A stretch of 41,409 nucleotides of DNA. It comes from Escherichia coli. GTDB taxonomy: Bacteria > Pseudomonadota > Gammaproteobacteria > Enterobacterales > Enterobacteriaceae. The translations under genes were made by a program, and so were the position numbers. The notes below the pieces were generated by a model. That model had not been told where the DNA came from. It saw only the letters and a list, made by a program, of their open reading frames with translations, and did not search any database. Location: the NCBI RefSeq assembly GCF_003334815.1, contig NZ_QOWO01000033.1. One strand, 5' to 3'. This document shows, piece by piece, positions 1 to 300 of this stretch (the first letter of the stretch is position 1; the number at the start of each line of letters is the position of its first letter).

Positions 1-62
1 TTTTTCGTCTTGCGACGTTAAGAATCCGTATCTTCGAGTGCCCACACAGATTGTCTGATAAA

Positions 63-75
63 TTGTTAAAGAGCA
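63..75 (-). promoter_or_regulatory. rRNA operon leader boxA antiterminator motif (rrnD leader, reads TGCTCTTTAACAA on minus strand)
   Basis: Reverse complement of 1..80 matches the conserved rrn leader between P2 and the 16S gene as I recall it (TGCTCTTTAACAATTTATCAGACAATCTGTGTGGGCACTCGAAGATACGGATTCTTAACGTCGCAAGACGAAAAA). The 16S gene itself lies outside the window. Confidence 0.7.
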
Positions 76-115
76 GTTGCGACGCGGCTTTCAGCTCACT
101 GTCGCGAGGTGGCGT

Positions 116-143
116 ATATTACGCTTTCCTCTTTCAGAGTCAA
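116..143 (-). promoter_or_regulatory. rrnD P2 promoter (-35 TTGACT at 138..143, -10 TAATAT at 116..121, 16-bp spacer)
   Basis: Hexamers and spacing read directly on the minus strand; position relative to boxA fits rrn P2 architecture. Confidence 0.6.
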
Positions 144-224
144 CCCTGAATTTCAGGATTTTTTTCTCTTCGTTGTTCCGACCATCCTGTGAAGTGTTTC
201 ACGTTGTCGTCTCAACGGAGGCGC

Positions 225-300
225 ATTATAGGGATCCCAATTTTTTGCACAAGTATTTTTTTGATCTTTTTTTCTGTTTGTTGTTTTTTCACCCTTTTTG
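225..300 (-). promoter_or_regulatory. rrnD P1 promoter (-10 TATAAT at 225..230, -35 TTGTGC at 247..252) with A/T-rich UP-element-like tract upstream
   Basis: Minus strand reads TTGTGCAAAAAATTGGGATCCCTATAATGCGCC, preceded by AAAAAAAGATCAAAAAAATACT. This resembles rrn P1 with its UP element. Confidence 0.55.

Follow-up and report, generated by a model that had tools for sequence, protein, structure and literature searches.

The rrnD control region of Escherichia coli, back to back with yrdA, and the reading frames that overlie it

We sought to determine what is encoded in the first 404 positions of a 41,409-nt stretch of Escherichia coli DNA (the window, in what follows), where the reading frames 77..361 and 189..959, both present as listed, run across DNA that a preliminary description had attributed to the leader and promoters of the rRNA operon rrnD. 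That attribution has held: positions 1..404 are almost certainly the E. coli rrnD control region, placed on the minus strand and back to back with the plus-strand gene yrdA, and nothing in the sequence speaks against this; what we see is not a relative but the rrnD promoter and leader itself, already known in detail. Indeed, positions 1-330 match the DNA upstream of K-12 rrnD at 100%, as do positions 1..1000 in K-12 records, and in the K-12 record identical over 1..1000 the operon behind the window comprises 16S, tRNA-Ile, tRNA-Ala, 23S, 5S, tRNA-Thr and a second 5S. It is the combination of the Ile and Ala spacer tRNAs, the distal tRNA-Thr, the second 5S and the yrdA-aroE-tsaC neighbors that identifies the operon as rrnD.

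The 16S gene had been expected just outside the window, on the minus strand beyond position 1, and it was found there in two K-12 records, in eight other E. coli strains and in Salmonella. Since the gene itself lies outside the window, its presence is taken from identical genomes; the mature 16S 5′ end is situated 69 nt past window position 1, on the minus strand, in every genome examined. In NC_000913.3 the 16S gene is named rrsD (b3278), and its divergent neighbor yrdA is b3279. Rfam searches confirmed the SSU, LSU, 5S and tRNA genes of the operon, with a score of 1580 bits for SSU_rRNA_bacteria. The eight further E. coli strains were picked across the identity range, and all eight have 16S on one side of the region and yrdA on the other, an arrangement also seen in Salmonella. 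Rfam also placed StyR-44 in the spacer just upstream of 23S, outside the window, at 3960..4059 (minus) of the E. coli locus and at 138..246 (minus) of the Salmonella locus.

Over its entire length, the window differs from K-12 MG1655 (NC_000913.3:3428832-3470240, plus strand) by 6 mismatches in 41,409 bases, and it therefore comes from a close K-12 relative and not from MG1655 itself. These six differences, the only ones, are at window positions 3856, 24654, 25600, 32895, 36758 and 40262, leaving the first 3.8 kb without any; located by K-12 gene positions, they lie in smf, the rpsJ-gspB spacer, gspA, gspH, gspO and chiA. The order of genes following the control region is yrdA, yrdB, aroE, tsaC, yrdD, smg, smf, def, fmt, rsmB, trkA, mscL, arfA, zntR and yhdN; beyond these lie the ribosomal-protein operons alpha, spc and S10, then the gsp cluster, bfr, bfd and chiA, and lastly the beginning of tufA. 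Several animal and human E. coli isolates outside K-12 match positions 20001-41409 at 100%.

When complete E. coli genomes were surveyed, window segment 1..1000 was found at a coverage of at least 80% in 5,420 of 5,426, with a median of seven places per genome, which is due to the seven copies of the rrn leader. Plasmid-borne matches to the rrn leader and promoter were also seen, at 10 places for segment 1..1000 and at 6 for 78..420. Segment 20001..41409 is present at a coverage of at least 80% in one place in only 3,033 of the 5,426 genomes, and part of it is therefore variable across the species; the variable part may be the type II secretion (gsp) cluster together with chiA. The Rfam search of the window itself returned no family covering the rrn leader or boxA, its sole match being the distant Alpha_RBS (RF00140; 13608..13719, minus strand, 102.7 bits) upstream of rpsM, the site known for autoregulation of the alpha operon by S4.

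The features located in the control region and in the adjoining yrdA gene are listed in Table 1.

Table 1. Features of window positions 1..959
Feature	Position	Strand	Remarks
rrn leader part (5′ flank of pre-16S)	1..77	minus	Invariant in the seven K-12 operons; near-identical in Salmonella
boxC-like element TGTGTGGG	48..41	minus	Motif located; invariant in seven operons
boxA TGCTCTTTAACAA	75..63	minus	Exact motif; invariant in seven operons and in Salmonella
boxB-like hairpin between P2 and boxA	79..105	minus	MFE fold, -13.5 kcal/mol
rrnD P2	143..116	minus	-35 TTGACT (143..138), 16-nt spacer, -10 TAATAT (121..116)
Palindrome CCTGAAATTCAGG and A-run	145..160	minus	Just upstream of P2 -35; common to rrnD, rrnH, rrnE and Salmonella
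Inferred P1 start (G)	216	minus	Ninth base after TATAAT; aligned to the rrnB P1 start column
P1 discriminator GCGCCTCC	224..217	minus	G+C-rich (GCGC); directly after -10
rrnD P1 core	225..252	minus	-35 TTGTGC (252..247), 16-nt spacer, -10 TATAAT (230..225)
UP element AGAAAAAAAGATCAAAAAAATA	275..254 (-38 to -59)	minus	86% A+T
Upstream activating region expected to hold Fis sites	276..370		Literature on rrnD P1
Spurious 94-aa ORF, TTG start	77..361	plus	Antisense over leader, P2, P1 and UP element
Probably spurious 54-aa ORF (WP_000172051.1)	212..376	minus	“Hypothetical protein” in some RefSeq genomes; over P1 core, UP element and Fis region
Spurious 72-codon yrdA extension, GTG start	189..404	plus	Without homology; substitution pattern; frameshift in NY1601
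yrdA, gamma-carbonic-anhydrase-like hexapeptide-repeat protein, 184 aa	405..959	plus	ATG at 405

For comparison outside E. coli, the Salmonella locus was reached through the sequence of PDB entry 3r3r; a degenerate 48-nt yrdA pattern was too strict, yielding two Escherichia contigs only, with little divergence. In Salmonella enterica an rrn operon is likewise divergent from yrdA, with the 16S gene on the minus strand at 485..2026 and yrdA at 2501 in the coordinates of that locus, and its P1-P2 interval is of the rrnH/E type; a single tRNA was detected in the 16S-23S spacer, as opposed to the Ile and Ala tRNAs in rrnD. From about -75 of P1 down to the discriminator, a segment that takes in the UP element, both hexamers and the spacer between them, the two species are almost identical: the P1 core is that of E. 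coli except for one spacer base, and the UP element is near-identical. The same applies to the segment that extends from the palindrome before P2 through P2 itself (which is identical), boxA and the leader. Between the UP region and yrdA, the sequences have diverged and differ by one indel. The combination of a conserved promoter and leader with a diverged remainder is the pattern to be expected of regulatory, and not of coding, DNA.

The yrdA gene is transcribed away from rrnD, as the preliminary description had proposed, and its true start is ATG 405, which lies exactly 216 nt into reading frame 189..959. By direct reading, GAGG precedes ATG 405 by 5-8 nt, whereas GTG 189 is without a Shine-Dalgarno sequence; 405 is also the RefSeq start of yrdA, and the current entry NP_417738.4 is the 184-aa form. 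The conserved N-terminus of YrdA (MSD...), which precedes the left-handed beta-helix domain, corresponds to the start at ATG 405. The crystallized chain of E. coli YrdA (PDB 3tio) starts at residue 74 of the 256-aa ORF, the alignments with this structure and with 3r3r from Salmonella start at residues 72-74 of that ORF, and position 2 of the NCBIfam gamma-CA profile is aligned with its residue 77. None of the PDB and NCBIfam matches of the 256-aa ORF reaches upstream of residue 66, and the 72-residue extension, when searched alone, yielded no meaningful match.

It could nevertheless be argued that 189..959 codes for a genuine 256-aa YrdA isoform with a hydrophobic N-terminal extension, which would make the region upstream of rrnD partly coding. 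In eight of nine E. coli sequences no stop interrupts this frame over at least 85 codons before ATG 405, and the 256-aa form, named gamma carbonic anhydrase family protein or YrdA, is found on at least 1,000 contigs. PDB and NCBIfam homologues, however, begin no earlier than residue 66, as described above, and the apparent hydrophobicity of the extension is due to T-runs that are the complement of the A-runs in the UP element. With eight of the nine frames open, it is the substitution pattern rather than the occurrence of stops that makes the case against the extension within E. coli: across nine sequences, five of the seven substitutions in 189..404 change an amino acid, versus none of the four in the first 166 nt of yrdA (405..570), all of which are at third codon positions. 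In strain NY1601 a 1-nt insertion after position 283 breaks the extension frame, and in Salmonella, which has the same ATG and Shine-Dalgarno sequence, a stop is present 8 codons upstream of the shared ATG, with no alternative start. We therefore rejected the long isoform, which we regard as very improbable on the strength of the homology limits, the substitutions, the NY1601 frameshift and the Salmonella stop, and these same observations bear out the earlier reading of the first 216 nt of ORF 189..959 as non-coding. The 256-aa YrdA, which stands on those contigs beside the correct 184-aa form, is a propagated start-codon error.

The other frame that had been set aside as an artefact, 77..361, is not coding either. 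It has no family match, forms a singleton cluster and was annotated once. In all eight of the other E. coli strains it is broken or changed, by frameshifting indels in seven and, in one, by the net loss of 3 nt, which changes about 25 residues; the indels, which are found at 87-88, at 159-160 and after 283, shorten the ORF to 37 aa, alter its sequence or join it to another frame. It is split in Salmonella. While both of the artefacts named in the preliminary description are thus upheld, a third, 212..376 on the minus strand, had been missed. This ORF is probably spurious, since it is restricted to E. coli and Shigella and its frame is not conserved in Salmonella, where the likeness is confined to the stretch encoded by conserved promoter DNA, the start and stop are different, and gene callers pick another segment.

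The notion that either 212..376 or 77..361 encodes a real small protein draws on the annotation by PGAP of WP_000172051.1 in some genomes, and on the 54-aa frame, which is intact in eight of nine E. coli sequences and whose cluster counts 30 members from E. coli and Shigella. However, neither frame has a family match, and 212..376 is frameshifted in NY1601 and carries nonsynonymous changes elsewhere. It stops at 212..214, 2 nt past the inferred P1 start, and, as it contains the P1 core, the UP element and the Fis region, it lies almost wholly upstream of that start and would need a separate upstream promoter; none was found for it on the minus strand in the consensus promoter scan. Given the lack of a family, the frame disruptions and the non-conservation in Salmonella, small proteins from the two frames were rejected as highly unlikely. 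The frames 77..361, 189..404 and 212..376 stay open by chance, owing to the skewed composition of a region full of A- and T-runs.

There is an equally slight chance that the upstream (Fis/UP) region of rrnD P1 yields something more than promoter activity, be it a 54-aa protein or a non-coding transcript; with regard to the latter, Gaal et al. 2016 speculated on a non-coding transcript that would aid the clustering of rRNA operons into a nucleolus-like body (PMC5110994). The practical consequence is one of annotation hygiene: 77..361 on the plus strand, the 189..404 extension of yrdA and 212..376 on the minus strand should be suppressed. Two of the three persist publicly: the 256-aa YrdA has been deposited on at least 1,000 contigs, and some RefSeq genomes still carry the 54-aa “hypothetical protein”. 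Otherwise the finding is of little scientific weight, because the rrn P1 and P2 promoters and leader are among the best-characterized bacterial regulatory regions.

To place the promoter elements, the reverse complement of 1..330 was aligned with the DNA that precedes each of the seven K-12 rrn operons, the comparison that the preliminary description had called for, and the window was found to be rrnD throughout. The P1 -10 and discriminator are invariant across the seven operons, while the P1 start column has G in rrnD only and A in the six others. Assignment of the region to rrnH or rrnE instead is so improbable as to be negligible and was rejected: from the P1 -10 through 16S the three operons are indeed very similar, in line with which segment 78..420 occurs at a median of three places per complete E. 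coli genome, but upstream of the P1 -10 the window matches rrnD alone, in the TTGTGC hexamer and the A-run UP element as well as, further down, in the G at +1, and the operon makeup and neighbors described above define rrnD. The two promoters of the rrnD control region had been credited with near-consensus hexamers, which is true of the P1 -10 (six of six consensus positions) and the P2 -35 (five of six) but not of the P1 -35, with three of six only. The A-tract UP-like element reported along with them was confirmed, its A+T content of 86% comparing with 51-62% in the flanking segments. Its proximal half, AAAAAAATA, fits AAAAAARNR, which is reportedly the proximal UP consensus of Estrem et al. 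1999; for the rrn P1 promoters of all seven operons, the primary paper is reportedly that of Hirvonen et al. 2001.

The rrnD P1 and P2 promoters and the upstream Fis sites were dissected experimentally by Gaal et al. 2016, who mutated the P1 -10 from TATAAT to TCTAAC (PMC5110994); the hexamer that they mutated agrees with the P1 -10 that we find at 230..225. The initiating nucleotide of the rrn P1 promoters is ATP at six of the operons, while rrnD P1 responds to GTP (PMC9239199), and the unique G at +1 of rrnD fits this published GTP dependence. According to the literature, rrnD P1 is activated through Fis sites that lie upstream (PMC5110994). A crude scan with a degenerate Fis motif yielded one weak candidate at about -144 (353..367), and a second, at about -71 (280..294), was read by eye with three mismatches.

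At P2, the start may be placed at about 107-109, and the -10 hexamers of P1 and P2 are 109 bp apart. The P2 -35, TTGACT, is invariant in the seven operons, and the P2 -10 is of two types, TAATAT in rrnD, rrnH and rrnE and TATTAT in rrnA, rrnB, rrnC and rrnG. P2 was the sole match in the consensus promoter scan, one being found where 1.4 +/- 1.2 would be expected by chance; P1 was missed because its -35 agrees with the consensus at only three positions. The significance of the promoter call thus comes from the 100% identity to rrnD and from the conservation across operons and in Salmonella, and not from hexamer matching.

Downstream of P2, the preliminary description had equated the reverse complement of 1..80 with the conserved rRNA leader; this is correct for 1..77, but positions 78..80 vary between operons, and the conserved block is therefore three positions shorter. 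The boxA that it had noted within the leader is present as an exact motif. The role of boxA in rrn antitermination is well established. Pre-16S is presumably cut by RNase III near position ~46, as obtained by arithmetic from the textbook -115 site. The segment of the boxB-like hairpin is represented in three of the eight other strains by an rrnE-type allele, in which a GCGC/GCGC stem is still possible. This allele has a 2-nt deletion and three substitutions at 87..96, giving the exact rrnE form, and its occurrence in the rrnD leader points to gene conversion between rrn leaders.

The rrnD control region has the architecture of the P1-P2 region of rrnB, the reference rRNA promoter: both have a UP element, a weak -35, a 16-nt spacer, TATAAT, a GCGC discriminator and a start at the ninth base, with P2 about 110-120 bp downstream of P1, and boxA and the leader are identical from position 77 on. 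They differ in the P1 -35 (TTGTGC in rrnD, TTGTCA in rrnB), in the UP element, which in rrnD consists of A-runs without a T-tract, unlike that of rrnB, and in the P1 +1 (G in rrnD, A in rrnB). The P1-P2 interval and the P2 -10 are also of the rrnD/H/E type (TAATAT), as opposed to TATTAT in rrnB.

The regulation of rrn P1 promoters by growth rate, ppGpp and the initiating nucleotide is established knowledge on rrn operons. We determined which elements are present, where they lie and how far they are conserved; the functions assigned to them below are drawn from PMC5110994, PMC9239199 and work by the Gourse laboratory and others. Sigma-70 RNA polymerase would start at the two tandem promoters, of which P1, starting at G216, would be the strong, growth-rate-regulated one. 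P1 combines a perfect -10 and a G+C-rich discriminator with a poor -35 and a short spacer of 16 nt, features expected to result in short-lived open complexes and hence in sensitivity to ppGpp/DksA and to the initiating nucleotide, which at rrnD P1 would be GTP. Its strength would derive from binding of the alpha C-terminal domains to the A-rich UP element at 275..254 and of Fis further upstream, while P2 (143..116), some 109 bp downstream, would give steadier expression. Both transcripts are predicted to carry the boxB-like hairpin, boxA and the boxC-like element, on which a Nus-factor antitermination complex would assemble, and the leader would pair with the spacer after 16S to form the RNase III processing stem.

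Two minor observations concern the plus strand, which faces yrdA. At 145..166, the palindrome CCTGAATTTCAGG is followed by T7 and resembles an intrinsic terminator facing yrdA, although such a match is within the chance expectation of the scan; the T-run beside the palindrome is T7, T6 or T5, depending on the strain. Closer to the gene, there is a candidate yrdA promoter at 345..373, composed of TTGCAC (345..350), 17 nt and CAAAGT (368..373), and both hexamers are kept in Salmonella amid diverged surroundings. If this promoter is real, yrdA mRNA would start downstream of GTG 189.
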